Of a stretch of 64,000 bases of DNA, positions 1-15,680 are shown one piece after another. The DNA is from Candidatus Magasanikiibacteriota bacterium (GTDB lineage: Bacteria; Patescibacteriota; Patescibacteriia; Magasanikbacterales; GWA2-37-8), in the NCBI GenBank assembly GCA_009694865.1, contig SICD01000001.1, forward strand, positions 403 through 64,402, given 5' to 3'. The translations under genes and the position numbers were made by a program. The first letter of the stretch is position 1, and each line of letters starts with the position of its first letter. The notes beneath the pieces were generated by a model that saw nothing but the letters and a program-made list of their open reading frames with translations, was not told the origin of the DNA and searched no databases.

Positions 1-217
1 TTGCGGCTTCCTCTAAAAATTTTGACATTCTTTTGATCAAGTCTTTTTTATTTTGTTGGAATGATTCTATGTAAAAATTTTCAAAGACACCAAAAACAAC
101 ATACTGGTTGTCGGCATTACCATGTGATGCGATAGCTTGAAAATCTTTAAAATCACGGATTTCAGGAATCAACCTTAATAATTCTCCAATACTATTTTGA
201 AAAGTTAAATTTTCCAT
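1..217 (-). CDS. Partial small protein (N-terminal 72 aa seen; runs off the window). Its start sits 5 nt after the stop of the giant repeat protein, so it may be an immunity-like partner.
   Basis: ATG at 215-217 on the minus strand gives an open frame to position 1 (MENLTFQNSIGELLRLIPEIRDF...). It is tightly coupled to the upstream gene, whose stop is at 223-225. No SD, as for other backbone genes. Confidence 0.4.
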   Translation of the reverse strand, partial: MENLTFQNSIGELLRLIPEIRDFKDFQAIASHGNADNQYVVFGVFENFYIESFQQNKKDLIKRMSKFLEEAA

Positions 218-222
218 AAATA

Positions 223-2286: not shown

Positions 2287-2299
2287 ACTTTTTTTCAAA

Positions 2300-2345
2300 T
2301 CATTATTAAAAAACAAATTTAAAGCCCCCAAAATTGGGGGCTTTA
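2300..2345 (-). terminator. Intrinsic terminator or attenuator hairpin between the flp pilin gene and the giant repeat-protein gene
   Basis: Palindrome aaagcccccaaaattgggggcttt at about 2321-2344. On the minus strand it is followed by a T-rich tract (tttgtttttt). This fits the common partial terminator found after pilin genes. Confidence 0.45.
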
Positions 2346-2349
2346 AAAA

Positions 2350-2526
2350 CTATAAGGGTTTTGTACCAAGTGCCGCGGTAGCGGCTTTAAAGGCATCGCC
2401 GAGTTTGTCTCGAAACGCCACCACCAGTATCACCAGCCCGGCAATAACCAAAGCTATTAATAGGCCGTACTCCGCCATGGCCTGGCCCGACTCATCAGAA
2501 AACCATTTTTTTACAACACGCGACAT
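2350..2526 (-). CDS. flp: Flp/Fap-family type IVb prepilin (58 aa)
   Basis: Hand translation of the minus strand gives MSRVVKKWFSDESGQAMAEYGLLIALVIAGLVILVVAFRDKLGDAFKAATAALGTKPL. This has the Flp G-x4-EY processing motif followed by a hydrophobic helix. Length is 177 nt including the stop. It was not in the ORF track because it is under 60 aa. Confidence 0.75.
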   Translation of the reverse strand: MSRVVKKWFSDESGQAMAEYGLLIALVIAGLVILVVAFRDKLGDAFKAATAALGTKPL

Positions 2527-2627
2527 ATGGTTGATGATATAAGAATAAATGTATTTAAAATATGAGCATGAGCTTTCTCGATTTAAATTTAGTTAAATGT
2601 AGAAATCGTGAGCGTTGTTTACACTTT

Positions 2628-2769
2628 TGTCATTCCGACCGAAACGAATCGCCTCGCGGCGATGAGTGCAATGGAGGTCATCACAGATACTCCGAGGAGT
2701 GAATCTCGCCGTAATGGCTTGATAAAATGGCTTAACTACGAGATCCCGCGACTGCGCTCGGGATGACAA
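2628..2769. repeat. MITE-like palindromic element, family A (termini tgtcattccgac...gggatgacaa), intergenic
   Basis: The terminal inverted repeats are visible. It shares the internal module ...gagatccc.../...gggatctc... with the other copies. ORF 2593..2796 lies inside it and is spurious. Confidence 0.7.
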
Positions 2770-2884
2770 TTGGTGGTTATCGCAAAGTGTATACAACGCT
2801 CTAAATTCTTACAAGTTAAACTAACAAAACACGTCTCTAAAACATTGTAGGTACACTGTCACGAAAGCGACATGTTGTCAAAAA

Positions 2885-2917
2885 ACTTATCCACAGGGTC
2901 ATTCGACCCTGCGAGCA
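2885..2917 (+). repeat. 33-bp repeat acttatccacagggtcattcgaccctgcgagca (DnaA-box-like TTATCCACA plus a 7-bp-stem hairpin); copy 1
   Basis: A near-identical copy lies in inverse orientation at 11923..11955. A weaker third box (ttatccacagga) is at 15738..15749. Confidence 0.5.
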
Positions 2918-2930
2918 ATGGATAGCATCT

Positions 2931-3242
2931 TTAGTTTAACAAAGAGGCGATGTCGTTCCCCACGAAGAGGGCGTGCTTTCCCGCCCCGCCTTCAGCCAAT
3001 TCCAAACAGGCCACCGTCCCCTTCGGCCCCCTCGCCACTCGCCAAGGGCCAAGATTGGCCTGTATCTCAATAACTTTATTTTGCCAGTCAAGCCACACCA
3101 CGTCAATTGGGAAACGCATAAACCAAGTATGCACTCCCATACAATGAGGAATCAAAAGGGCTTCGTCCGGCGGCAAATTAGATTTTCCAAGAAGCCCAAT
3201 CAGACGAGCGAAAAATGTTTTGGCGGTATAAATAGTGAGCAT
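2931..3242 (-). CDS. DUF192 (COG1430)-family protein
   Basis: Pattern recall: 103 aa with ...IPHCMGVHTWFMRFPIDVVWLD...ACLELAEG..., typical of DUF192. Confidence 0.5.
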   Translation of the reverse strand: MLTIYTAKTFFARLIGLLGKSNLPPDEALLIPHCMGVHTWFMRFPIDVVWLDWQNKVIEIQANLGPWRVARGPKGTVACLELAEGGAGKHALFVGNDIASLLN

Positions 3243-3249
3243 ACATACA

Positions 3250-4887
3250 TTATACCACCCCCTCGCTCGGCGGCGTTGGTTTCAGCGGTATCCAAAACCC
3301 AAACTCACTCCCCTTTTTAAGCCCCGCACTTTTGGCCCACACCCGCCCGCCATGGGTTTCAATAAACTTGCGACAGACATACAGCCCCAAACCCGTGCCG
3401 TTCACATTCTTATTTTTTACATTCTCGCCCCGATAAAACTTTTGGAAAAAATTTGGTTGGTCCACCACTCCAAAACCAAAACCTTTGTCGTTAACCCGAA
3501 CCGCCAAACCATCTTTCTCGGGCGCTACCGTTACCGTAATATCGCCGTGCTCGCTGTACTTAATGGCGTTGTCAATAAAATTAAATACCACATGGCGCAC
3601 TTTTTCCTCATCCATAATAATGACTGGTAATTTAATATGGCGCCACACCAATCGGGGACCACGTTGTTTAGCCCGCTCTTCCAATTCTTTCACCACTCCA
3701 TCTATTAAAACGGCCATATCATGCTCGGCAAAATCAAATTTGGTGCGCCCTTGCTCAATCCGCGTAATATCCAAAAATTCATCCACGAGTTTAATTAAGC
3801 GGCCGTTGCTCTCGTCAATATTGTGAAAAATATCTTTGGTGGCCTTGGTCACTTTGCCATACGCGCCATCACCCAATAATTCAATATAGCCGTTAATAAT
3901 AGAGAGGGGCGTGCGAAGCTGATGCGCCGCAATGGAAAGAAAATCGGTTTTCTGGCGGTCGAGCTCTTGCAAACGCGCATTGGCTAATTCCAAAGATTTG
4001 GCGAGTTTAGATAATTCTTCGCGCTGGGCAATTTCTTTAGTAACGCTTTTAACTAAAAACACTCCTAAACCAGCCACCAAACAAGCCAAAACAATTTTAA
4101 ACAAGATAATCGGGAGCGAACCAGACAACACCCCTTCCGAAAGAAGTAAAATCGTCAAAATAGCCACTAGAACTTCAGTGGCCACAATTTTAATGTCAAA
4201 TAAATGATATCTAAAGATAGCGTAGGCGATAAAACTAATTAAAATAACGGAGGAAAGCGGCCCCAAAAATACCGCCGCCGATGTTTTGAGAATAACCACA
4301 AAAATGACCGTTGTGATGGCCATAAAAGAAAACGTGGCGATGACTCCCAAAAGAAAAAATAAAATTTGAACCCGTTCGTTGCCGCTTGATTTGCGGTGCT
4401 TGTAGATTAGAATAATGAAACTTAAAATAAATAGACCGACAAAATCAGCAAAAAAAATACCAATGCCCGGCCCCGGTACTGGCACCGGTTCGCCGCTCGC
4501 GTAACTTAGAGAACTAAATACCGCCGGGGTTAAAGACGCAATGGCCGATGTGGCCATAAGAATAATAAGGGGAACAAGATAGCGCGTTTTAATAGTAAAA
4601 TGATCATGCGGGAAAGTTGCTACCAAAAATACCAAAGTGGGTCCAATAAACGAACAGGTAAACATTACAACCCTAATCCAAAAAAGTTGCGCCGCGACCT
4701 CCGGCGGGTGGAGTGAAATAAAATTGACTAAAATATAAACATCTATTAAAAAACTCAAAATAATAAAAAACCGACTCGTCCAACTTGCCCTATTTTTAAG
4801 CCAGACCACCAAGCCTAAATAGGTAGTAAACAAAAACGTAAAAATACCCAAAAGTATTTCGGCGTTGAAGAGCTGAAAGTAGTTCAT
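3250..4887 (-). CDS. Sensor histidine kinase with a multi-pass (about 7 TM) N-terminal sensor domain. There is no adjacent response regulator.
   Basis: HisKA H-box LSIAAHQLRTPLSIINGYIELL and HATPase_c G-box GTGLGLYVCRKFIETHGGRVWAKS. The likely start is the ATG at 4885-4887 (MNYFQLFNAEILLG...). The longer ORF-track start at 5037 runs into the foreign high-GC island. Confidence 0.8.
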   Translation of the reverse strand: MNYFQLFNAEILLGIFTFLFTTYLGLVVWLKNRASWTSRFFIILSFLIDVYILVNFISLHPPEVAAQLFWIRVVMFTCSFIGPTLVFLVATFPHDHFTIKTRYLVPLIILMATSAIASLTPAVFSSLSYASGEPVPVPGPGIGIFFADFVGLFILSFIILIYKHRKSSGNERVQILFFLLGVIATFSFMAITTVIFVVILKTSAAVFLGPLSSVILISFIAYAIFRYHLFDIKIVATEVLVAILTILLLSEGVLSGSLPIILFKIVLACLVAGLGVFLVKSVTKEIAQREELSKLAKSLELANARLQELDRQKTDFLSIAAHQLRTPLSIINGYIELLGDGAYGKVTKATKDIFHNIDESNGRLIKLVDEFLDITRIEQGRTKFDFAEHDMAVLIDGVVKELEERAKQRGPRLVWRHIKLPVIIMDEEKVRHVVFNFIDNAIKYSEHGDITVTVAPEKDGLAVRVNDKGFGFGVVDQPNFFQKFYRGENVKNKNVNGTGLGLYVCRKFIETHGGRVWAKSAGLKKGSEFGFWIPLKPTPPSEGVV

Positions 4888-4920
4888 ACTACTATAGTAT
4901 ATACTATTTTGGCTTGACTC

Positions 4921-4957
4921 ACAACAAAAAAGTTTAAAAAGAACAGCGCCCCGCGGA
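4921..4957 (-). terminator. Intrinsic terminator of the high-GC cassette gene 5045..5608
   Basis: Hairpin gcgccccgcggatgcggagcgc at 4936-4957, preceded on the plus strand by aaaaagaaca (a T-run on the minus strand). Confidence 0.5.
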
Positions 4958-5044
4958 TGCGGAGCGCTTTGTTGCCTTGTTGCGAAGGCGAGCCCGAAGG
5001 GACCGAGCGACCTCGATAGAACCGAGCCACCCAGCACCCCAGTG

Positions 5045-5608
5045 CTACTTGCCGCGCGGGAGGACGTAGCGGGCGCCGAAGTCGTTGCCGACCCAGCCGA
5101 AGTCGAGCACCCACGCGTCGCCGCGCCAGAACAGGCCGGCGACGTAGAGGTTGCAGTCGGAGCGGCGCAGGCGAGTTGCGGTGAAGACGATGGCCTTCTT
5201 GCCCCGGAACTCCTCCGGGATGAGGTGCGGGTTGTCCCGCAGGTACACCGCGTCCAGGAGACCCTTGTTGGCCTCGAGGATCATCGCGCGACCGCACATC
5301 ACCTCGCCGACCACCGAGCCGCCGTCGCCCTCCTCGAAGAACGAGGGGTATTCGATCCCATTGGCCTTGAAGAGGGTGGGGATGACATCGGTCTCGACCG
5401 TAAAGCCGTGCTTAGCGGCTTCGGCGCTCGAGGGGAACTGCAGGTCGCCGCCGACGGCCTCGAACCGGCCTTCCGTGAGCGCCTGAAGCGCCACGTCCAG
5501 CTGGTCTGTGTCGAAGGGGTAGCCTTCCCGCTGCCGGAGCTGGCGGACGATCTCCAGCAACTTCCCGTCCAACTTGTAGTACTGATCGCCAGTGACGATA
5601 GTCGCCAT
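5045..5608 (-). CDS. Hypothetical protein (187 aa) carried on a conspicuously high-G+C island; probably horizontally acquired
   Basis: G+C is about 65% by eye against mid-40s flanks, with codons ending in G or C. A canonical SD (aggag) lies 6 nt upstream of the ATG at 5608 (plus strand ctcct at 5614-5618). It has its own terminator at 4921-4957. The plus- and minus-strand ORFs 5042..5626, 5151..5486, 5299..5724 and 5412..5645 are GC-rich shadows. Confidence 0.6.
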   Translation of the reverse strand: MATIVTGDQYYKLDGKLLEIVRQLRQREGYPFDTDQLDVALQALTEGRFEAVGGDLQFPSSAEAAKHGFTVETDVIPTLFKANGIEYPSFFEEGDGGSVVGEVMCGRAMILEANKGLLDAVYLRDNPHLIPEEFRGKKAIVFTATRLRRSDCNLYVAGLFWRGDAWVLDFGWVGNDFGARYVLPRGK

Positions 5609-5882
5609 GACAATCTCCTTTCGTAAGGCTCATACCCGCCAGCACACATGTGCCGACAGATGTTTGCCTGATTTGACTGGGTAGTTCCCAGCCTTCTTTC
5701 TAATCCCGAGTTAGTCGTGACCAAAAAGAAAGCTGGTAATTATAAAGTCCGCCTCTTCGGCGGATCAGCCGGTGAGGCTGAAACAACGGATAACTATAAC
5801 ACATTTTAGCACGATTGTCAATAGTGACATACAAAAAATGGCTCTCATAAGCCATTAGATTCTTAGGTATCCTAAAAATACT

Positions 5883-6044
5883 CTACGATTCTACGCCATC
5901 TTTAATTTTTTTAACAATCGTAACAAGACTCTCAAGTATTACTTTTATCTCTCGCAGATCATCCTTAGTCGCCATAGTTTCCTTAACTATACGCATATCT
6001 TCTTTCAACCCAATTATTTCTTGTATAACTTTATCTTCATCCAT
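5883..6044 (-). CDS. Small hypothetical coiled-coil protein (53 aa)
   Basis: Internal ATG of ORF 5883..6074: MDEDKVIQEIIGLKEDMRIVKETMATKDDLREIKVILESLV... The composition matches the backbone. No homology was recognised. Confidence 0.25.
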   Translation of the reverse strand: MDEDKVIQEIIGLKEDMRIVKETMATKDDLREIKVILESLVTIVKKIKDGVES

Positions 6045-6150
6045 AGTATTGTAGTAACAAAAATTAAACCTCACCTAACGTCTTAGAACTGGTAGCGAGT
6101 TATTTCTATAAGTGGCTTAACGTAGCCAAAAATTGACAAAAATTTTTGGC

Positions 6151-6279
6151 TGTCATTCCGACGACACAGGAGGTCTCGCGATCCCTCATAGGGGAATCTC
6201 TGGCTCACTCAATTGATGACATTTGTTGTTGGGTAAGCCAGAGATCCCTCGTCGGCGCGAGCCTCGCTCGGGATGACAA
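6151..6279. repeat. MITE-like palindromic element family A, intergenic
   Basis: tgtcattccgacgacacaggaggtctcgcgatccc...gggatctc...cgctcgggatgacaa. The central part is a nested palindrome. Confidence 0.7.
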
Positions 6280-6395
6280 TTGGTGAAACTCGCTATGAAT
6301 TCTTATACCTTTTAGTATATATAACAAAAAAAGCCTTGTCAAACGCAAACACCGTTGTTGCTCGTTCCCCGTTTATATAATATAATTCCCCCACT

Positions 6396-7568
6396 ATGGA
6401 CAATTACTCTGCCTGGAACGTTCCCCAGCATTCTCCTGATATTTTTAAAACACTCCCCCCGCGAGAACAGCTAGAATATCTGTGCGCCTTGGCCCACCTC
6501 GCCCCCAGCACCCACAACACCCAGCCATGGCGATTTAAGATATCGGTGGAGACGCACATTATTGAACTCTATCTGGATCGCAACACCGTACTGCCGGCTT
6601 CGGACGTGGTGGGTCGACAATCGGTAGTGAGCTGTGGCACGGCGCTCGCTCACCTCAAACTCGCTTCGGAATATTATGGCTTTAAAGCAGAAGTGGCTAC
6701 CGCGTCAATTGATCCAGCGTCAGTGAAACCGCTTCCTGTTTCGAGCCTCCCCTCACCCAACCTCTCCCGTGAGGAGAGGAGGTCGTTCCCCTCGCCCCGC
6801 GGGAGAGGGACGCAGGGTGAGGGGTCGCCGCTCGCAATCATAGCGCTCACCCCAGCGACACCAAACCTAAATAAAGAAAAATTAATCACCAGTATCTGGA
6901 AACGAAAAATGATGCGCGCGGAATTTAAACCAGACCAACTCATCCCAACAGAAGTAATATCAGAATTAAAACAATGGACCGATAACGACGTAACAAAACT
7001 TCACATTATAACCGACCCGGTGCGACGCTTGAGCATCGCGGAATTCCAAGCCCAGGCCGATGGGTTTGTGATAAACTCAACAAAATTTAGCCGTGAGCTC
7101 GGCGATTGGCTCCTCCCCAACGATACAAATTCCCCGGTCGGCATGCCCGGCATTGGTTTTGGCCTGCAAGACGAAGAAGCTAAACGATTACACGCCGGAC
7201 TCTCTGGCGAAAAAGCTCTCGAAGCCGAAGACGGCCTGCGTTTTGCTTTGGGCGGAAAAATGGGGCTAGAAAAATCGCCGCTCATTGGCTTTATTACGAC
7301 CAAAGATGACACACCGGAAAGTTGGCTGGCGGCGGGCGAAGCGTTTGAAAAAATGAATTTAACGCTCGTTGCCGCCGGTTTAAGCGTTGCCATGCACGCC
7401 GGCATTACCGAAGTACCGCTCATTAAAAAAATTTTTAGCGTGTCGCTCGGCACGCTCCGGCCTATCACTGTGCTCTTTCGCGCCGGTTATTTAAAAAATG
7501 AGCACGATGCGAATCGCCCTCATTCTCCTCGTCTGCCACTCTCCGCTGTCATCCTGAAAGATAAGTGA
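6396..7568 (+). CDS. Nitroreductase-superfamily protein (long form, about 390 aa) carrying an in-frame palindromic insertion
   Basis: The nitroreductase signature APSTHNTQPWRF is near the N-terminus. The size fits a two-domain (Acg/SagB-like) nitroreductase. Family-B element 6747-6824 is translated in-frame as ...[31 protein letters not shown].... Confidence 0.65.
   Translation: MDNYSAWNVPQHSPDIFKTLPPREQLEYLCALAHLAPSTHNTQPWRFKISVETHIIELYLDRNTVLPASDVVGRQSVVSCGTALAHLKLASEYYGFKAEVATASIDPASVKPLPVSSLPSPNLSREERRSFPSPRGRGTQGEGSPLAIIALTPATPNLNKEKLITSIWKRKMMRAEFKPDQLIPTEVISELKQWTDNDVTKLHIITDPVRRLSIAEFQAQADGFVINSTKFSRELGDWLLPNDTNSPVGMPGIGFGLQDEEAKRLHAGLSGEKALEAEDGLRFALGGKMGLEKSPLIGFITTKDDTPESWLAAGEAFEKMNLTLVAAGLSVAMHAGITEVPLIKKIFSVSLGTLRPITVLFRAGYLKNEHDANRPHSPRLPLSAVILKDK
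6747..6824. repeat. Palindromic element family B (cccctcaccc...gggtgagggg with two internal hairpins), in-frame inside the nitroreductase gene
   Basis: cctcccctcacccaacctctcccgtgaggagaggaggtcgttcccctcgccccgcgggagagggacgcagggtgagggg. A second copy is at 61803-61877 inside uvrB. Confidence 0.65.
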
Positions 7569-7584
7569 AGGATCTAATTTAAAT

Positions 7585-7719
7585 TGTCATTCCGAATCCC
7601 CCGTCGCAGGGGGTGAGGAATCTCTGTCTCAATCAACGTAACGACAGACAGAGATCCCCCTACGAGGGATCGCGAGACCTCGTCGCACCGCACGATACGG
7701 GGCTCGCTCGGGATGACAG
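7585..7719. repeat. MITE-like palindromic element family A, filling exactly the gap between convergent genes (stop at 7568 and stop at 7720)
   Basis: tgtcattccgaatcccccgtcgcagggggtgagg...cgctcgggatgacag. Confidence 0.7.
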
Positions 7720-8970
7720 TTAAAAAATCTTCGCTGTCAAATTGTGTTTATTAATAATCGCCCTTGGCGGATAATCGTAACCAAGCCGAATTCGCGCCAC
7801 CGTTTCAGCCGCTACTGCACCCGCCATCGCCACGGTTGACCCCAGTTGCGGAATTAAAGTTGAAGTAGGAATTTCACTTTTTTCTTCAATAATATCTTTT
7901 AACTCGTCTTGACGATACGCGGTGCCAACGAGGCTATCCACAAACGCAAAAAATGCTTGCCTATTGCCAGGCCGATTATAAACTTCTTCCATTTTTTTAT
8001 ACAACTCACTATCGGTCGTTCCAAATGTGAGCGGAAGCGTTTGGTCTTGGTCAAATCGACACACATCCAGTTGCACAGCCGAGCCAATGTCCGTCACCAT
8101 CACCACCGGAAGTTTCCGTTTCCTTGCTTCCTCGCGAATGAATAATTTCACACGTGGATCATCCACTTCTTCCACAACAATATCGGTCGTTGGCTCGCCC
8201 TCTCTGCCATCAAAAAATTCTTTCACATTATCCAATGTCACGCCTTCGTCGTACACAAACACATTCATATACGGATCCATGGCATAAATTTGTTCCGCCA
8301 CGACCCGCGCTTTATTTTTTAACGCCAAATCTACTTCGCTTGCTCGCTCGGCCTGGCTTTTTACCATTTCAAAATATCCCAAACGCACGCGGTTAATATT
8401 TTCCATTTTATACAAACTCTTGTCGGCTACTTTAATATTACTCGGACGCATGTCCATAACCAGGCTATGGATGACGCTGCTCCCCACGCTGCACCCGGCC
8501 ACTGCCACAACAGTAGTAGATAATTTCTCTCGCACCTCTGCCCAGGATAATTTTTTATTTTTATCAGTCAGCAGGGTGGAACTACTGGTGACAGCCACGG
8601 TGTGATGCCAGTACGGCGGACAAAACCTCACTAGATGGTTCCGCTCGGCATAATAAGCATAATACCCATAAGCAAACGGCGCACCTGGCCCCAAAACGGA
8701 TAATTGATTGCTGTAATTTTCCCATTCACCATTAAACTCTTCACGCAAACTTTTCCCAGAAGCGCCCCGCGCCGAAAGCGTCAATCTCTCATTCAAACCA
8801 AAAATTGTGGCTTGGGTTAAATCGTATTGATGCGACGGTGGGACGCCTCGCTCCTCGCCATCAATCGTAATTTTTGTTGTTCCGTCATTTTCGTAACGCA
8901 CCAAACCTAAACTGTGAGCCACACCAGCTTCATAGATAAACGGTTTACCAATTAGTCGAGAAACGGACAT
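7720..8970 (-). CDS. ThiF/MoeB/E1-like adenylyltransferase-family protein with a roughly 150-aa N-terminal extension
   Basis: Rossmann GxGxxG loop VAVAGCSVGSSVIHSLV followed by a ThiF-like core. Its start is 3 nt after the stop of the upstream 371-aa gene. Confidence 0.6.
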   Translation of the reverse strand: MSVSRLIGKPFIYEAGVAHSLGLVRYENDGTTKITIDGEERGVPPSHQYDLTQATIFGLNERLTLSARGASGKSLREEFNGEWENYSNQLSVLGPGAPFAYGYYAYYAERNHLVRFCPPYWHHTVAVTSSSTLLTDKNKKLSWAEVREKLSTTVVAVAGCSVGSSVIHSLVMDMRPSNIKVADKSLYKMENINRVRLGYFEMVKSQAERASEVDLALKNKARVVAEQIYAMDPYMNVFVYDEGVTLDNVKEFFDGREGEPTTDIVVEEVDDPRVKLFIREEARKRKLPVVMVTDIGSAVQLDVCRFDQDQTLPLTFGTTDSELYKKMEEVYNRPGNRQAFFAFVDSLVGTAYRQDELKDIIEEKSEIPTSTLIPQLGSTVAMAGAVAAETVARIRLGYDYPPRAIINKHNLTAKIF

Positions 8971-8973
8971 AGT

Positions 8974-10089
8974 CTATTTAAGATCAAGAGCCGCGACCGC
9001 TGCGTCCAATTGCGCGCGCCACCCTGGCGCGTCAATAAATCGGAGTAGTGGTCCATCCCCCACTTCCGCGTCTACCAAGGCTCGCAGTTGTTTACCAGTT
9101 AACGTAGCGCCGGGAATTTGTCCATGGGCTGTAAGCAGACGCCCCAATCCGCGCAGATGATTCAATAAATCGCGGTGCGATGATTCTTCCCACTGTTCAA
9201 TTTCATGTTCCACAAAATTTTCCAAAAAATGACAAAACGACTGCGCTGTCATCTTGCCTTCGTGATAAAGCCGTTTGAGGAGCCGTGCTAGCTCGTGCAT
9301 ATTCAAAAAATACCCCGGAAAACGATAGGCCATTACTTTGCGCTCCAACATAATTTCTTCCGGAGTACATTTAAAATGCACTTCAATACCCGGCACAGTG
9401 AGCTGAACATTTGTTTCGCGCTGAATCTCCATCGAAATTTTATTAAATAGTCGTTCACTAAACACCGCTGTAACAAAGGTAAGATCGCGCGTGGTGGCAT
9501 GGTGAAACACATAATAATTCATCAGCAAAAAAGCGACCGCTGAATATTTAAGACGCGTGGAACGATTCCCAATAAGACCCTTGGAATTATAATGAGCAAA
9601 ACCGCAAATGCGCGATATCGTCATGACATTTTTCCAAAAAACACCCTCACTCTCGCCCACCTCCTCCGCGAGATGCTGACCAACACTTTTTCCAAGAAAA
9701 TGATACTGGTCAAGATCTTCAGTGGAAAGTGGCGTGCCGTTCGCTGGAATAAAACGAGTGCTTACCCATTCCGTATGATACGTTACCACCCCTTCTTCGT
9801 CGGTCGCTGGATAATCTACTCGGCACAGATATACCGCGGCCTTGTCGTCGTAGCTATCGAGCAACGGCACCGCGCCATAACGCAAGTACGATCGCCGCGC
9901 TTCACTCACCAGCGCTGGCCAATGGGGGTGAAGCCAATTAGATACGTGGAATTCTTTTGCTTCGTATAAAACAAAATGAACCTGACCCCAACGATAGGTA
10001 TAAAGAGGGTCGGGTAATTCACTGGTAAGATGCTGGATATGCTCCGGCGTCAAAGCTGACTTTCCATTTCGATGGATGCCAAAAGGCAT
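8974..10089 (-). CDS. Hypothetical protein (371 aa), translationally coupled between argS and the E1-like gene
   Basis: Open frame with a conserved-looking Cys/His-containing core (...MTISRICGFAHYNSKGLIGNRSTRLKYSAVAFLLMNYYVFHHATTRD...). No family was recognised with confidence. Confidence 0.55.
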   Translation of the reverse strand: MPFGIHRNGKSALTPEHIQHLTSELPDPLYTYRWGQVHFVLYEAKEFHVSNWLHPHWPALVSEARRSYLRYGAVPLLDSYDDKAAVYLCRVDYPATDEEGVVTYHTEWVSTRFIPANGTPLSTEDLDQYHFLGKSVGQHLAEEVGESEGVFWKNVMTISRICGFAHYNSKGLIGNRSTRLKYSAVAFLLMNYYVFHHATTRDLTFVTAVFSERLFNKISMEIQRETNVQLTVPGIEVHFKCTPEEIMLERKVMAYRFPGYFLNMHELARLLKRLYHEGKMTAQSFCHFLENFVEHEIEQWEESSHRDLLNHLRGLGRLLTAHGQIPGATLTGKQLRALVDAEVGDGPLLRFIDAPGWRAQLDAAVAALDLK

Positions 10090-10102
10090 ATAAGGATGAA
10101 AA

Positions 10103-11800
10103 TTACATCTTTTCTACCACTTTAATTCCCAAAAGATAGAGGCCGCGCTTGGCGACTGTGAGAACGCTTTTAATTAATTGAGCTCGAAAAATTCTAGTAG
10201 CACCTTCAGATTTTACTACCGAGCAGGCTGCATAAAAATCGCTAAAGCGTTGCGCGAGTACCAGCAAATAATGAGCAATAAGCGAAGGATCCGGCAATGC
10301 CGCCGCCCGTGCTGTGACCGCTCCAAATTCGCCTAGCAATAATAATAGCCGTTTTTCTTCTAAAACAATCGTCTCCGGAATCTCGCCGAGACTAAGAGTG
10401 CCAATTTTTTCTAAAATACTGCGAATACGCGCGCACATATACAAAAGATACGGCCCAGAATCACCCGTTAAACTCACCGAAGTTTTAAAATCAAACGCAA
10501 TATCATTCTCAATTCCCGTCTTAAGAAACGCATACTTAACCGCCGCCAAAGCAACATTTTTAATAACATCGTCCTTGTTTGGAAGATCGCTCTCGCTCAT
10601 AATTTGCGTCACTTCTTTTTCTGCTTCGTCCAAAAGCCACTCCCCTAAAACCACTTTGCCTGTGCGCGAACTCATTTTCCCCTCTTTAAGTTTGACCCAA
10701 CCATATTCTAAATGCCGCTCTCGCTCCTTGCTTTTTGGCAAAGTAAATTCTAAAGCTTTAAACAACACTTTAAAATATTCCGATTGTTCCTTGGCCACCA
10801 CATGATAAATTGCTACTGGGTCAAACTCAGCAAATTGTTTTTCCGCCAAAGCCAAATCCTTGGCTTCATACGTAGGGAAGCCTTTGCTGTTTAAAAACAC
10901 CCGGTCGTGCAAACCAAATTCAGAGCCTTTAAAAATCACCGCGCCCTCACTTTGCACAAAAATTTCTTTTACCACGCACTCTTTCACAATTTCCCGTCCA
11001 CGCGCGAACACTTCCGATTCAAAATACAACCGGTCAAACCGACTCCCCACGCGCGCATAAATAGCGTCAAAATATTCCAAACTCCAGCCCCTCGTCTCCG
11101 TGTACATTTCTCGAATGGATTCGTCGTGAGTGTAAATCGATTCATTAATCTCCCCAATTTCGGCTTTAACCTTTTCATCTTGTTCAAACGTCTGACTCCC
11201 CAAAGCATAAGCCTTGCCCAAAAACGCCACGCGCTCGGTAATCGTTTTATTTTTTACCGTCTCATATTCAGCTCGCAGCTGCCGCACTCCCCACAAACAT
11301 TTGGCAATGTGCATACCCACATCACCCTGATAATTCGCTCGCACCACTTCGTATCCGGCATTCTCCAAAATTCGCACTAAACTCTCGCCCGTCACGATAT
11401 TTCGTAAATGACCAATATGAAAAGCTTTGTGTGTGTTCGGATGCGCGAACTCCACTATCACTTTTTTACCTTTCCCAATTTCACCCATGCCATAATCATC
11501 ACCCCGGCGCGTAATTTCTTCAATCACCATTCTAGCCACCTCCGCTCCATTAAGAAAAAAATTCACATACGATCCCACCGCGCGCACGTCACTCACCATT
11601 CTTAATTCTTCATTCTTAATTCTTAATTCCAATTCTTTGGCCACTTCCACCGGACTCTTTTTTTGAGTCTTCGCGATCCCAAAACACGCGAACGCGAAAT
11701 CACCCATCTCGGCTTTAGGTGGAGCGGTAAATTCAATTGCGCCTTCCACTCCCACGGAGCGGAGCGCGGCTTCTAATTCACTGGTTATCTTAAAAGACAT
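10103..11800 (-). CDS. argS: Arginyl-tRNA synthetase
   Basis: Class I HIGH region EFAHPNTHKAFHIGHLRN, and the ArgS-type C-terminus ...AKRGLYLLGIKVVEKM. The likely start is MSFKITSELEAAL (ATG at 11798-11800). Confidence 0.8.
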   Translation of the reverse strand: MSFKITSELEAALRSVGVEGAIEFTAPPKAEMGDFAFACFGIAKTQKKSPVEVAKELELRIKNEELRMVSDVRAVGSYVNFFLNGAEVARMVIEEITRRGDDYGMGEIGKGKKVIVEFAHPNTHKAFHIGHLRNIVTGESLVRILENAGYEVVRANYQGDVGMHIAKCLWGVRQLRAEYETVKNKTITERVAFLGKAYALGSQTFEQDEKVKAEIGEINESIYTHDESIREMYTETRGWSLEYFDAIYARVGSRFDRLYFESEVFARGREIVKECVVKEIFVQSEGAVIFKGSEFGLHDRVFLNSKGFPTYEAKDLALAEKQFAEFDPVAIYHVVAKEQSEYFKVLFKALEFTLPKSKERERHLEYGWVKLKEGKMSSRTGKVVLGEWLLDEAEKEVTQIMSESDLPNKDDVIKNVALAAVKYAFLKTGIENDIAFDFKTSVSLTGDSGPYLLYMCARIRSILEKIGTLSLGEIPETIVLEEKRLLLLLGEFGAVTARAAALPDPSLIAHYLLVLAQRFSDFYAACSVVKSEGATRIFRAQLIKSVLTVAKRGLYLLGIKVVEKM

Positions 11801-11922
11801 GTAGGCTATTCTATTACAAACAAAGGCAAAAAGCAAATAAAAAAATAATCCCACTTCACAGGATTATCGTTCCCCTCCTCAAAGAACATTATACCACAAT
11901 TTATCGGATAATGACACTACCC

Positions 11923-11955
11923 TGCTCGCAGAGTCGAATGACCCTGTGGATAAGT
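11923..11955 (-). repeat. Copy 2 of the 33-bp DnaA-box-like/hairpin repeat, in inverse orientation
   Basis: The reverse complement reads acttatccacagggtcattcgactctgcgagca (1 mismatch to the copy at 2885-2917). Confidence 0.5.
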
Positions 11956-11960
11956 TCTTG

Positions 11961-12260
11961 CTATTCCGCTTCATGAATAACGCGAGCGCGACGCAAAAGC
12001 GTAGGGTTAACTAAACGATGGGCACGGGTAATGTCGTCAACCAAAAGCGCGCTACCCGGATTTTCTCCAACTCGCCCCATAAAACGCCATGGCTTAACGT
12101 CATCCCGCGATTGAACCAAATCGCCCGGCTGCGCCTTGCAACCAGAAAACGATTCGGGGTAATAGATGATATTTTGCTCCGGCGATGTGAATGTTTGCGG
12201 ACGAATCTCTTTTGGGCTCACGCTATCGCGACTTCCTTCGCCACCAAGTCTTTTACTCAT
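11961..12260 (-). CDS. Hypothetical protein (99 aa) coupled 4 nt downstream of tyrS
   Basis: Only ORF evidence and tight coupling. No homology was recognised. Confidence 0.3.
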   Translation of the reverse strand: MSKRLGGEGSRDSVSPKEIRPQTFTSPEQNIIYYPESFSGCKAQPGDLVQSRDDVKPWRFMGRVGENPGSALLVDDITRAHRLVNPTLLRRARVIHEAE

Positions 12261-12264
12261 ACAC

Positions 12265-13458
12265 TTAGATTGTTTTTACAAAAAACCGCTTGCCTTTTTG
12301 GATGATATCACCTGGCTTTAAAATCGTGTATTGATCGGCAACAACATCATTTACTCGAACACCGTCTTGCGATAAAAGTCTACGTGCCTCAGTCCTGCTT
12401 GAACATAATCCAGAGTATAATAATACTGAGATAATGCTACTATCACTAGCAAGAAGTTTGTGCTCTGGAATATCTTCGACTGGGGGTCTTTCTTTATTTT
12501 GGATAACACTGGCAAAATTTTTCTCTCCCTGCTCAGCCGCTTCCTCGCCTAAAAATGTTTTAGTAATTTCATACGCCAACATTTTTTTAAATTTCATCGG
12601 CTCGGCTTGAATGAATTTTTCACTCGGCACGTCAGCGCGGGTACATAATTCAAACCCACCACGAATCATCCCATCGCTCCAGCGCATTACTTTGCCAAAC
12701 ATATCTTCCGGCGTATCGCTAAACGCCACCATATTTCCTTCGGTCTTGCCCATTTTTACACCGCTGTCATCGACCAAAAGCTTAAGCGTAAGTACAAATT
12801 TTTCTTTTCCTTTAAACTGCTTCATCAAATCACGCCCTACTAGCATGTTAAACGTCTGATCATTCCCACCGACTTCGCCATCTACCTCCATTGCCACCGA
12901 ATCATATCCTTGAAGCAAGGGATATAATAACTCGTGCGCGTAAATTGGTTTGCTCTCAGCTAGTCGCTTTTGGAACATATCTCGCTCCATTAAACGTTGT
13001 TGCGTAATATGTGTAGCGACATTCAATAAATCAGCCGCACTCATCTTGCCCCACCACTCGCCATTAAATTTAACGAGCGCTGGATTGTCACCGCTAAAAT
13101 TTAAGATAGCACTCGCCTGTTTTTTGTATAACGCGCAGTTCTGGCTTACCTGTTCTGGCGTCAGTTGTTGGCGTGCCGCCAATTTATCAGTCGGGTCGCC
13201 TATCATGCCAGTAAAATCACCAACCAAAAAAATTACCTTGTGGCCAAGTTCTTGAAATTGTTGAAGTTTTAAAAGTGTGATCCCATTGCCAATATGGAGC
13301 GTGGGAGCCGTTGGATCATAGCCAACATAGAGCGTGAGCGGCTTTCCATCTTTAAGGCGAGCCTCCAAAAATTCTTTTTTAGGGTAAATATTTTCTACTC
13401 CGCGAGAGAGAAGTTCGTTAATTTTTTTATCGTCAGTTGAAATTTTCATATTGGCCAT
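12265..13458 (-). CDS. tyrS: Tyrosyl-tRNA synthetase
   Basis: YVGYDPTAPTLHIGNGI (HIGH-like), LLQGYD, KMGKTEGN (KMSKS) and a C-terminal S4 domain (...EARRLLSQDGVRVND...). Confidence 0.85.
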   Translation of the reverse strand: MANMKISTDDKKINELLSRGVENIYPKKEFLEARLKDGKPLTLYVGYDPTAPTLHIGNGITLLKLQQFQELGHKVIFLVGDFTGMIGDPTDKLAARQQLTPEQVSQNCALYKKQASAILNFSGDNPALVKFNGEWWGKMSAADLLNVATHITQQRLMERDMFQKRLAESKPIYAHELLYPLLQGYDSVAMEVDGEVGGNDQTFNMLVGRDLMKQFKGKEKFVLTLKLLVDDSGVKMGKTEGNMVAFSDTPEDMFGKVMRWSDGMIRGGFELCTRADVPSEKFIQAEPMKFKKMLAYEITKTFLGEEAAEQGEKNFASVIQNKERPPVEDIPEHKLLASDSSIISVLLYSGLCSSRTEARRLLSQDGVRVNDVVADQYTILKPGDIIQKGKRFFVKTI

Positions 13459-15680
13459 TTTTGAATCATAAGTAGTTTTTCTTTTTCCTTTCCATACATC
13501 TCACTCCAAATCGCCTCCGTCACAAACGGCATAAACGGGTGCAGGAGCTTGAGCGACATAATAAGATTATGGAGAAGAATTTTTTTAGTATTATCCGCAA
13601 ACGCTTCGTCAACTAATTGCGTTTTGCTCGCCTCCAAATACACATCGGCCAATTTGTGCCACACAAAATCATAAATAGTTTGCGCCGCTTCGTGCAAACG
13701 AAACGCTTCAAGACCGCTCGTCACTCCCTCAATCGTTTGTTGTAATTCGAGAATAATGGTTTTATCGGCCTCAGTCTTCGTTTCAATCGATTTGGAGCTT
13801 GAAATTTGGAGCTTGGAAACTTCCAGATTTGTCAAAACAAATCTGGCGATGTTCCACAACTTATTCGCGAAATGCTTCATACCCTTAACCTTATCTTCCG
13901 CCAACGGAATATCGTTACCCGCCGCAGTGGAAAACACCAGCGCGAAACGAAGCGCGTCCGTACCATAGGTATCAATAACTCCTAACGGATCAATCACATT
14001 CCCCTTACTTTTGCTCATTTTCTGACGATCTTTATCGCGCACCAGGCCATGCAAAAATATTTTTTCAAATGGCGGTTTGCTAGTTCGATAATATGACATC
14101 ATTACCATTCTAGCCACCCAGAAAAAAATAATATCCCAACCAGTTTCCATTACTTGCGTAGGAAAATAGGTTTCAAAATCTTTGGTACCATGCTTGGCAT
14201 CATTCGCCATAAGCGTGGCGTACGGCCACTGACCGGACGAAAACCAAGTGTCGAAAGTATCAGGATCATGAATAATTTCTGTAGAATCACAATGCGGGCA
14301 GACTGTCAGAGTATTCTCAACATCAACAATCACACCATTCTTCATTCGACATTCGTCATTCTGCATTCGCTGACAGTACCACACTGGCAGCGGTATCCCC
14401 CACCAAATTTGGCGGCTAATTGGCCAATCGCGAATATTTTCCATCCAGTGACGATATGTTTTTTCGAATTTCTCCGTAACAATCTCTACTTCTTTTTTGT
14501 CGAGCGCCTGGACGGCCATATCGCGAAGCGAAGGGCGGCCATCGGGCAATTGCTTGGTCATGGCAATGTACCACTGCGGCACAATTTGCGGCTCAATGAG
14601 ATTACCACATTTGTAGCAGAGCTGGACATTGTGCTTATATTTATCATCAATATGGTCTACCAACCCTTTGCCTTGTAGTTTCTCCACAATTTTAACGCGC
14701 GCGTCCAAAATTTTCATACCCGAAAACTCTCCGGTCATCGGGAGCATTTTACCTCGTTTGTCTATTACCTGTTCAACATCCAATTTGTGCCGCTCCGCAA
14801 TCTCAAAATCCACCGCCGAGTGTGCTGGAGTGATGGTCATAACGCCGGTACCAAATTCCATATCCGCGGCTTCATCTTTTATAACGGTGGCGGTAATGGA
14901 TCCGTTAATCCATTCTAAATTTAATTTATCACCATGTTTATACCGGGTGTAGCGCTTATCATCCGGATGCATAACAACATATTTATCGCCAAATTTTGTT
15001 TCGGGACGCGATGTGCCAATAACAAACGGACCGTATTTAAAATAATAAAATTGTTCTTGGCGCTCTTCATATTTCGTTTCTAAATCTGCCAAACCGGTTT
15101 GATGCTTGGGACACCAATTGCAAATACGACCCGCACGATAAATTAGACCATCGGCGTACATTTGTTTAAACGTGGCGTAAACGACTTTAACAATTTCCGG
15201 ATCAAGACTAAAAATATTTCGGCTCCAATCGCATGACGCCCCCAAACGGCGAATACCATTCTCGCTCAAATGCTTGTTATGTTGCACAAAATCCCAACAC
15301 GCTTTATAGAATTCCTCACGCGTCATTTTAAAACGGCTGGTGCCTTCTTTCTCTAATTTTTTTTCAAATACCACCTGGGTTTCAAAACCAGCGTGGTCGG
15401 TGCCCGGCAACCACAAAGCTCTGCGCCCGCGCATGCGGTGATACCGAGTTAAAATATCTTGAATTGTTAAACCCAAAGCATGCCCCACGTGCAAGGGAGC
15501 GTTGGCGTTGGGGAGCGGGAGCATTATCGTAAAGGGCCTTCGCTCCGCTTCGCTTAGATTATCCACCCAAGGCAGATGCGCCTCGGGCGCAAAAAAACCG
15601 CTGTCTTCCCAGCGCTTATAAATATCGGCCTCGTATTGGCCAGGGTCGTAAGCTTTAGCTAATTCTTCCATAGTCTCCAT
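13446..15680 (-). CDS. valS: Valyl-tRNA synthetase, short form (744 aa; the C-terminal coiled-coil appears absent). Its 3' end overlaps tyrS by 13 nt.
   Basis: PNANAPLHVGHALG...LWLPGTDHAGFETQ, WPISRQIWWGIPLPVWYC, KMSKSKGNVIDP. Confidence 0.85.
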   Translation of the reverse strand: METMEELAKAYDPGQYEADIYKRWEDSGFFAPEAHLPWVDNLSEAERRPFTIMLPLPNANAPLHVGHALGLTIQDILTRYHRMRGRRALWLPGTDHAGFETQVVFEKKLEKEGTSRFKMTREEFYKACWDFVQHNKHLSENGIRRLGASCDWSRNIFSLDPEIVKVVYATFKQMYADGLIYRAGRICNWCPKHQTGLADLETKYEERQEQFYYFKYGPFVIGTSRPETKFGDKYVVMHPDDKRYTRYKHGDKLNLEWINGSITATVIKDEAADMEFGTGVMTITPAHSAVDFEIAERHKLDVEQVIDKRGKMLPMTGEFSGMKILDARVKIVEKLQGKGLVDHIDDKYKHNVQLCYKCGNLIEPQIVPQWYIAMTKQLPDGRPSLRDMAVQALDKKEVEIVTEKFEKTYRHWMENIRDWPISRQIWWGIPLPVWYCQRMQNDECRMKNGVIVDVENTLTVCPHCDSTEIIHDPDTFDTWFSSGQWPYATLMANDAKHGTKDFETYFPTQVMETGWDIIFFWVARMVMMSYYRTSKPPFEKIFLHGLVRDKDRQKMSKSKGNVIDPLGVIDTYGTDALRFALVFSTAAGNDIPLAEDKVKGMKHFANKLWNIARFVLTNLEVSKLQISSSKSIETKTEADKTIILELQQTIEGVTSGLEAFRLHEAAQTIYDFVWHKLADVYLEASKTQLVDEAFADNTKKILLHNLIMSLKLLHPFMPFVTEAIWSEMYGKEKEKLLMIQKWPI

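Follow-up and report, generated by a model that had tools for sequence, protein, structure and literature searches.

In published work, clusters for the synthesis of N-acyl oxazolones (OxzAB/TyzACB/TrzAS) are marked by a ThiF protein and a flavin-dependent oxidase (FDO), fused or adjacent, beside an acyltransferase. To date, these lipids are known from Pseudomonadota, Actinomycetota, and Planctomycetota (PMC12479983), and their physiological role was called an open question in the discovery papers (PMC10404671, PMC12856293). The TyzA, TyzB, and TyzC enzymes of Mycobacterium tuberculosis, which produce an N-acyl tyrazolone, are three separate proteins (PMC10404671), and TrzS (Rv1355c) and OxzB, the partners of TrzA (Rv1356c) and OxzA, are ThiF-FDO fusions of about 710 aa (PMC12856293; bioRxiv 10.1101/2020.06.11.147165). 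The same three-gene signature, in operon-like NAS, ThiF, and nitroreductase clusters, was reported for N-acyl dehydrotyrosines such as stieleriacines and thalassotalic and kyonggic acids, which shows that an intact oxazolone is not the necessary end product (PMC12479983). These clusters occur in Planctomycetota, Pseudomonadota, and Actinomycetota, and linkage to a "histidine kinase" is not mentioned in PMC12479983.

A comparable set of genes was found in a 64-kb window, the whole stretch of Candidatus Magasanikbacteria (CPR, Patescibacteria) DNA analyzed here. The four open reading frames of the preliminary description, namely argS, a 371-aa protein (hereafter X), an E1-like ThiF protein (E1), and a nitroreductase (NR) converging on them from the other strand, were all found at the places given for them (Table 1). 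Their relatives are numerous, with E-values from 1e-48 to 1e-270, so none of these genes is a chance ORF.

Table 1. Coordinates of the genes and protein domains of the locus, numbered within the 64-kb window.
Feature	Position	Strand	Remarks
7TM sensor histidine kinase	3250..4887	-	HisKA_7TM PF16927, HisKA PF00512, HATPase_c PF02518
NR, 390 aa, flavin-dependent oxidase (FDO/Acg type), nitroreductase superfamily	6396..7568	+	Convergent on E1
E1, 416 aa, ThiF-type adenylating enzyme, Rv1355c/TrzS (oxazolone cyclase) clade	7720..8970	-	
CPR-specific N-terminal domain of E1, ~residues 1-100	8671..8970	-	Conserved motif
X, 371 aa, predicted N-acyl amino acid synthase-like acyltransferase	8974..10089	-	Sequence-orphan family, CPR only
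C-terminal extra domain of X, ~residues 230-371, mostly helical	8977..9402	-	Structure model
GNAT (LuxI/FeeM-type) domain of X, ~residues 25-225	9415..10017	-	Fold match
argS, arginine--tRNA ligase	10103..11854	-	TIGR00456; Pfam tRNA-synt_1d, DALR_1, Arg_tRNA_synt_N

The order X, E1, convergent NR, 7TM histidine kinase was kept wherever the contig allowed among 30 distinct CPR loci, and this tightly packed module, which contains only these four genes, was unbroken in every genomic context. X and E1 were paired in 28 of 28 assessable loci: in 26 they overlapped or lay at most 50 nt apart, in one they were fused, and in one a gap of 871 nt separated them. In-frame X-E1 fusion proteins of 800 aa (L029) and 795 aa (P0203) were observed. 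E1 and NR converged in all 30 loci, and NR adjoined the kinase gene in 28 of the 28 that could be assessed, despite differing flanking genes. These results support the view that X, E1, and the convergent NR form one functional unit; the 7TM kinase is a conserved fourth member of the module.

The best model for E1 was PRK07877 (Rv1355c/TrzS; E 5.6e-39), and the ThiF, MoeB, and TcdA models scored 1.8e-8 or weaker. However, the 134 bits obtained fell below the NCBIfam cutoff of 476, set for the full-length model, which counts against an oxazolone assignment. Residues 103-401 (~300 residues) were 27% identical to a TrzS homologue, and D270 was aligned with its conserved Asp of the ATP motif, the residue to which adenylation is ascribed (PMC12856293). 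The ATP-binding GxGxxG previously attributed to E1 is not literally present: the loop reads A-G-C-S-V-G-S, with G159, S161, V162, and G163 invariant, and the TrzS homologue carries the same variant (VGLSVGS). By sequence, E1 is a ThiF-like enzyme of the TyzB/OxzB/TrzS clade in which both the ATP-binding loop and the adenylation Asp are intact. The proposed N-terminal extension of about 150 aa does measure 144 aa against the Pfam ThiF model (match at residues 145-399), but residues 103-144 are common to TrzS, and only ~100 aa are unique. This segment is strongly conserved inside the CPR family, with the motif Q-[FY]-D-L-T-Q-A-T-I-F-G-L-N-E-R-L-T. No conserved catalytic Cys and no CxxC were found in the E1 family alignment, in which C160, the sole Cys in a conserved motif, alternates with Ala.

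X had been described as belonging to an unrecognized family, which holds for its sequence but not for its fold. Queries with X, with a profile of 65 sequences, and with each of the 65 members singly returned no Pfam, NCBIfam, PHROGs, or PDB match; for the homologue P0153, an N-terminal fragment matched Pfam Acetyltransf_5. The structure model, by contrast, shows a fold of the N-acyl amino acid synthase type (FeeM/LuxI-type GNAT), encoded next to a ThiF gene as in oxazolone clusters. Near-invariant residues of the GNAT domain are R65, Y71, G72, D78, D81, K83, E107, W108, R112, S159, R160, and C162. FeeM and LuxI-type enzymes (~190 aa) lack the C-terminal extra domain of X, for which the model comprises elements H235-H368 with pLDDT mostly >85; P258, Y260, G332, L335, R336, and L349 are conserved there, and this domain yielded no fold match.

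A TrzA-family alignment was obtained via a Rhodococcus plasmid locus for comparison with X, and the plasmid locus L036 offered no usable acyltransferase neighbour. The hhalign comparison of the two profiles was not significant (probability 1.3%, P 0.04), the families having only the short pattern A..SY.R[YH]G...D...EW in common. No sequence-level tie of X to any characterized acyltransferase was found, which counts against an oxazolone assignment. The published oxazolone-cluster acyltransferases are also very divergent from one another. Membership of X among the LuxI-type acyl-homoserine-lactone synthases was considered and rejected, since the fold is similar but the 65 family members have no Pfam match. 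In addition, a homoserine lactone would lack the free carboxylate that the obligate ThiF partner is expected to need.

NR aligned over its full length with the Acg family model NF047509 (E 7.6e-56; 190 bits, below the cutoff of 199), and in the ThiF-FDO fusion families PRK07877, PRK14851, and PRK14852 it also matched the FDO portion. Its match in the PDB was Acg (2ymv; E 1.2e-11). The FDO domain of TrzS was matched over 77 aa only (E 2e-4), so that the Acg model fits better. Acg-type enzymes belong to FDO-B and have no known part in oxazolone synthesis, FDO-A being the oxazolone-linked subgroup (PMC10404671); this and the sub-cutoff score count against an oxazolone assignment. An FDO-type nitroreductase does adjoin the ThiF gene, and NR is predicted to be a C-alpha/C-beta desaturase. 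The earlier suggestion that the nitroreductase hints at E1-linked heterocycle and dehydrogenation chemistry was close to the mark, except as regards a TOMM/azoline system: no YcaO match was found in any ORF of the region, and NR is of the Acg/FDO type and not SagB-like.

The CPR module resembles the Tyz system (PMC10404671) in several respects. The three enzymes are separate proteins in both, the ThiF-like cyclase and the FDO (~370 aa) each standing alone, and each cluster has one gene on the opposite strand (tyzA and NR, respectively). TyzA is likewise an orphan acyltransferase (~320-370 aa), and FeeM and AHL-synthase-type acyltransferases come closest to its model. Unlike in the Tyz system, X has no detectable similarity to known acyltransferases, the best model for NR is Acg-type, a 7TM kinase always adjoins, and E1 (416 aa, against 318 aa for the Tyz cyclase) has an N-terminus ~100 aa longer. 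The ThiF domain of TrzS is the best family match of E1, and in TrzA/TrzS, in OxzA/OxzB, and here the ThiF gene is directly preceded on its own strand by that of the acyltransferase; however, ThiF and FDO are separate and convergent in CPR bacteria, where X and E1 are fused in some genomes. The N-acyl dehydrotyrosine clusters, for their part, contain recognizable NAS (NasY) genes, unlike X (PMC12479983). Literature linking oxazolone with Patescibacteria was also sought, and only unrelated colitis and microbiome papers were found.

Taken together, these comparisons lead us to assign a probability of about 0.65 to the reading that X, E1, and NR are a divergent CPR version of the three-enzyme N-acyl amino-acid oxazolone pathway, whose chemistry and substrates we infer from the described systems. 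X would acylate a free amino acid at its amino group, drawing on an activated donor (acyl-CoA or acyl-ACP), and E1 would use ATP to adenylate the free carboxylate of the N-acyl amino acid, upon which the amide oxygen would close the ring to an oxazol-5-one. The FDO may desaturate the C-alpha/C-beta bond prior to or following cyclization, and the pathway would yield an N-acyl oxazolone or, once the ring opens, an N-acyl dehydro-amino acid. The overall logic would thus be an ATP-dependent cyclodehydration, then a flavin-dependent desaturation. The known FDO step requires O2, and CPR bacteria are commonly held to be anaerobic fermenters without fatty-acid synthesis; this puts both the oxidant of the FDO and the acyl donor in question and counts against the reading.

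The kinase ORF is open to position 5037, with a likely start at the ATG at 4887, and its transmembrane region is highly conserved. In a second type of cassette, found at three loci (L041, L063, and L054), genes for a PaaK-like ligase, an Rv1355c-type ThiF, and an FDO have a related 7TM kinase directly downstream. This recurrent pairing suggests a signal-and-receptor role, and the 7TM kinase most likely senses the lipid-like product or controls its production. In Vibrio, the synthase genes luxM and cqsA, each for a lipid-like small molecule, adjoin genes for polytopic membrane histidine kinases (luxN and cqsS, respectively). The Vibrio enzymes have no homology to those of the CPR module, and that the CPR kinase senses a ligand is purely our inference. 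No response-regulator gene was found anywhere in the 64-kb window; at some other loci, response-regulator and pilus genes come after the kinase gene, and a receiver-PilB-type pilus ATPase is among the regulators in L004 and L063.

The same enzymology could also serve another biology, the lipid being part of the membrane, protecting against stress, or acting as an antimicrobial on hosts or competitors, and the kinase a regulator or bystander rather than a receptor. We regard this as possible, with odds well short of even. Oxazolones were recovered chiefly from cell pellets (PMC10404671, PMC12856293), and Stieleria has antimicrobial N-acyl tyrosine derivatives (PMC12856293). Moreover, a close kinase homologue occurs without any cassette (L042), and most 7TM kinases at 30% identity have no cassette within 6 kb; both observations count against our main reading. 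A bystander kinase is, however, difficult to reconcile with its retention beside the cassette at all 28 assessable loci although the flanks change, and with the presence of a 7TM kinase after each of two different cassette types. That the four genes form a self-contained CPR signal-and-receptor unit, in which the co-inherited 7TM kinase senses a diffusible signal, an N-acyl oxazolone or a dehydro-amino acid, is itself a tentative proposal that we consider rather unlikely.

A RiPP-type modification, in which the N-terminal domain of E1 would bind a ribosomal peptide and E1 adenylate its C-terminus (as MccB/PaaA do), with a SagB-like NR and X as an accessory protein, was rejected as unsupported and seems improbable.

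The proximity of argS had also invited the idea that X is an aminoacyl-tRNA-dependent transferase fed with Arg-tRNA, or that X and E1 form a ubiquitin-like conjugation system. The argS gene is bona fide, with a TIGR00456 score of 355 bits (cutoff 262). It lies 13 nt from X (TAA to ATG), and not 14 nt as first given, whereas the 3 nt between X and E1 (TAG to ATG) were correct. Since no terminator-like site was found in either junction, co-transcription of the proposed operon is plausible; translational coupling is not indicated, as there is no overlap of codons and no obvious Shine-Dalgarno sequence in the argS-X spacer, ttttcatccttat. When conservation of the triad was checked, argS was directly upstream of X in 14 of 26 assessable loci, ~1.1 kb away in three, and absent in nine, and where present it was always within a valS-tyrS-argS housekeeping block. 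Fem- and L/F-type aminoacyl-tRNA transferases do have GNAT-like folds, which together with the position of argS would suit the transferase idea. However, no such enzyme (Fem, L/F-transferase, ATE/Bpt, MprF-C/DUF2156) was the closest fold of X with a conserved linkage to a source of aminoacyl-tRNA, and the 64-kb window contains no tRNA gene and no Rfam family, and thus no tRNA or riboswitch link. The ubiquitin-like variant fares no better, as the module includes no small beta-grasp (Ubl/ThiS/MoaD-like) gene, E2, or JAB, and E1 lacks a conserved catalytic Cys; we consider both ideas very improbable. The argS gene is a lineage-specific syntenic neighbour, probably co-transcribed with X and E1 in this lineage, and not a conserved module member or mechanistic partner; the tempting link reflects synteny rather than mechanism. 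Finally, it is scarcely credible that E1 is a TcdA-like tRNA ct6A dehydratase, which would suit a place beside three aminoacyl-tRNA synthetase genes, since, although TcdA is its sole PDB sequence match (E 0.003) and ct6A is itself an oxazolone, the Rv1355c match surpasses the TcdA match by more than 30 orders of magnitude and E1 is invariably accompanied by an acyltransferase-fold protein and an FDO rather than by tRNA enzymes.

What is new relative to the known pathway is the phylum, the orphan acyltransferase family, the additional domains that X and E1 carry, and the repeated pairing with a kinase. For three "hypothetical" protein families, which have more than 150 cluster representatives apiece, the oxazolone pathway as reconstructed here provides a probable function, and it would place oxazolone enzymatic logic in reduced CPR genomes. 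It also makes a signalling hypothesis concrete, in which the product of a cluster conserved in many lineages would activate the neighbouring kinase. If the signal unit is real, its output would pass in several lineages through response regulators, including the receiver-PilB-type pilus ATPase, and the module may serve quorum-sensing or host-contact signalling in ultra-small episymbionts, which would be a first physiological role for oxazolones.

The preliminary description had placed argS, the 371-aa gene X and a ThiF/E1-like gene (E1) in line, with a gene of the nitroreductase superfamily (NR) converging on them, and this layout was borne out with three corrections. The argS-X gap, given as 14 nt, measured 13 nt in the window sequence (TAA-13 nt-ATG); X and E1 are separated by TAG-3 nt-ATG, and no terminator-like site was found in either junction. 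The glycine loop of E1, described as GxGxxG, is present but as the variant AGCSVGS, and the N-terminal extension of E1, put at about 150 aa, exists, although only about 100 residues of it are truly extra. The database protein identical to X is a hypothetical protein from a Candidatus Magasanikbacteria MAG, and the E1-like and NR proteins are also annotated as hypothetical. No tRNA genes (ARAGORN) or Rfam families (gathering thresholds) were detected across positions 1-64000 of the window.

Features of the window and of the compared loci (positions are those of the window or of the respective locus; kinase identities are to the window kinase)
Locus	Feature	Position	Strand	Remarks
Window	valS	13446-15680	-	
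Window	tyrS	12265-13458	-	
Window	99-aa ORF		-	Listed between tyrS and argS
Window	argS	10103-11854	-	
Window	X	8974-10089	-	371 aa
Window	E1 (ThiF/E1-like)	7720-8970	-	416 aa
Window	NR	6396-7568	+	390 aa, nitroreductase superfamily
Window	NR-kinase spacer	4888-6395		
Window	Promoter-like site	5821-5793		Strong, 11/12 matches
Window	Spacer ORF, MSU74895.1	5045-5608	-	187 aa
Window	Terminator-like hairpin	4968-4945		
Window	7TM histidine kinase	3250-4887	-	HisKA_7TM, HisKA, HATPase_c
Window	DUF192 protein	2931-3242		Downstream of kinase
Window	Coiled-coil/phasin-like protein	223-2331		702 aa, downstream of kinase
L040	Same module			Kinase 58% identity
L042	tyrS-argS, unrelated 357-aa gene, kinase, bactofilin	2695-7745		Kinase 49% identity; no cassette
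L041	VKOR, Glu/Leu/Phe/Val (ELFV) dehydrogenase, PaaK-like ligase, ThiF, FDO, between argS and kinase	454-7569		Kinase 44% identity; no X
L063	Aromatic amino acid lyase, ThiF, histidine phosphatase, PaaK-like ligase, FDO, 7TM kinase	114-9201		Kinase 33% identity; no X
L054, L044	Parts of L041/L063-like arrangement			
L001	Flp and TadE pilins	8845-9641		Downstream of kinase
L004	Response regulator, receiver-T2SSE ATPase	10628-12340		Downstream of kinase
L029	X-E1 fusion	2798-5200		In frame, 800 aa
L039	P0153	4262-5644		X homologue

Loci were gathered via X homologues, via E1 homologues and by scanning GTDB species genomes with an E1 profile, and were all annotated with profiles; removal of duplicates left 30 loci, including the window. 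The counts are of non-independent events, since the loci were found through similarity and share phylogenetic ties. More than 166 proteins make up the E1-like family (50-83% identity); wherever named, they belong to CPR (Patescibacteria) groups. X lies upstream of E1 in all 28 assessable loci (26 overlapping or at most 50 nt apart, one with an 871-nt gap, and one in-frame fusion), NR converges on E1 in 30/30, usually with a 4-32 nt overlap of the 3' ends, and a 7TM histidine kinase follows NR in 28/28 assessable loci, one of which has it on the opposite strand. The preliminary grouping of X with E1 and NR was correct. In contrast, the argS-X-E1 triad is not conserved: argS, proposed as a functional partner, was found within 93 nt upstream of X in 14 of 26 assessable loci, always in a valS-tyrS-argS block, about 1.1 kb upstream in three, and was absent from nine in which the upstream sequence covers 2.8 kb or more. 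The argS-bearing loci cluster in a few clades of a neighbour-joining tree of E1, and the neighbours identified so far in argS-less loci are dnaJ, response-regulator and PNPase genes. A partner role for argS was not supported, nor were the aminoacyl-tRNA-dependent, ubiquitin-like and RiPP-type mechanisms suggested earlier.

Two natural in-frame X-E1 fusions, in L029 (X profile at residues 19-377, E1 profile at 387-799) and in protein P0203 (795 aa), both with a linker of about 10 residues, support a direct partnership of X and E1. The extra domains at the C-terminus of X and the N-terminus of E1 may form the interface between them. Several MAGs, those of L012, L013, L016, L018, L020, L025, L029, L033, and L035, bear the CPR-type module, in several cases also with valS-tyrS-argS synteny, under record titles naming "uncultured Gammaproteobacteria" or "Candidatus Poribacteria", and are probably mislabelled bins.

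In published systems, the fusions of ThiF and flavin-dependent oxidase (FDO) domains OxzB, from Pseudoalteromonas rubra, and TrzS (Rv1355c), from M. tuberculosis, convert N-acyl amino acids to oxazolones by cyclisation and desaturation (PMC12856293; bioRxiv 10.1101/2020.06.11.147165), and TyzB and TyzC perform the same reactions as separate proteins (PMC10404671). An N-acyltransferase gene (OxzA, TrzA, or TyzA) adjoins in all these cases (PMC10404671; PMC12856293), and this trio is also the mark of N-acyl dehydrotyrosine clusters, which occur in Planctomycetota and other phyla (PMC12479983). E1, which has only a modest Pfam ThiF match, matched the NCBIfam "Rv1355c family" model (E 5.6e-39; next ThiF model, 1.8e-8) and NR an Acg-family FMN oxidoreductase model (E 7.6e-56), both with scores below the NCBIfam cut-offs. 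NR also matched the Rv1355c model and two related fusion families, in each case in the C-terminal part, so that the convergent gene pair corresponds to both halves of a fusion protein already known. The PDB match of NR was Acg (2YMV), and NR is closer to the Acg-type model than to the FDO domain of TrzS.

About 165 residues in the N-terminal half of X align with synthases of the FeeM/AHL type, in agreement with what has been published on TyzA, a hypothetical protein that has few homologues and models nearest to FeeM and AHL-synthase-type acyltransferases (PMC10404671). Residues ~230-371 of X make up an additional, mostly helical domain in the structure model. By sequence, X could not be tied to the TrzA family (hhalign probability 1.3%, P 0.04). 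Only six homologues of X were found by word-indexed search, and 264 cluster representatives, nearly all of 320-400 aa, by exhaustive profile search. One homologue, P0153, carries an N-terminal fragment of a canonical Pfam Acetyltransf_5 domain (31.9 bits, above cutoff) in a murein-ligase/Ddl/NUDIX context without E1, and is possibly an evolutionary trace that connects X with the ordinary N-acyl amino acid synthases.

The module was also approached from the kinase, whose transmembrane part shows high conservation across orthologues, by scanning metagenomes with a kinase profile and then annotating the loci. Related 7TM kinases also lie downstream of a second type of CPR cassette (L041, L063), in which a PaaK-like ligase, an Rv1355c-type ThiF and an FDO share one strand; the L041 ThiF scored 277 bits, and the L041 FDO matches the FDO domain of Rv1355c at full length. 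The aromatic-lyase and PaaK-like genes, which have no counterpart in the window, hint at aromatic acyl groups in this sister cassette. In L042, a 357-aa gene with a weak XdhC-like match replaces the X-E1-NR cassette, and the stretch between argS and the kinase behaves as a variable slot. No ThiF+FDO cassette was found in the flanks of about ten more distant 7TM kinases. The two cassette types and several kinase subclades indicate that the link between ThiF+FDO and 7TM kinases recurs, and L042 and the distant kinases that the kinase can exist without a cassette. In the argS-less loci L004, L010, L017, and L031 the module is flanked by response-regulator genes, and in L063 the kinase is followed by one such gene and by a receiver-T2SSE (PilB-like) ATPase gene; no response-regulator gene was found within the 64-kb window, where the kinase is an orphan. 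Across loci, post-kinase genes are often surface- or cytoskeleton-related, including bactofilin in L007, L008, L009, L041, and L042.

The NR-kinase spacer is about 1.5 kb in the window versus 14-260 nt at other loci. Its singleton hypothetical ORF, without family match, with a GC content of about 56% versus 45% and with a promoter-like site and a terminator-like hairpin of its own, has the look of inserted foreign DNA.

The cluster is best classed as a variant of the known acyltransferase, ThiF cyclase and FDO pathway. It differs from described oxazolone clusters in its phylum (CPR/Patescibacteria), in an acyltransferase from an orphan sequence family, in the extra domains of X and E1, in the convergent FDO gene and in the 7TM sensor kinase as a conserved neighbour; no prior report of a CPR version was found in the searchable literature. 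Folds, family specificity, gene order and fusions come directly from our data, and the chemistry from published homologues, by analogy with which we infer that oxazolone chemistry applies to X-E1-NR. Its O2 dependence and acyl supply fit awkwardly with typical CPR physiology. X would N-acylate an amino acid, E1 would adenylate the carboxylate, upon which the ring would close to an oxazolone, and NR would desaturate the C-alpha/C-beta bond. The neighbouring 7TM kinase would either sense the product or regulate its synthesis.
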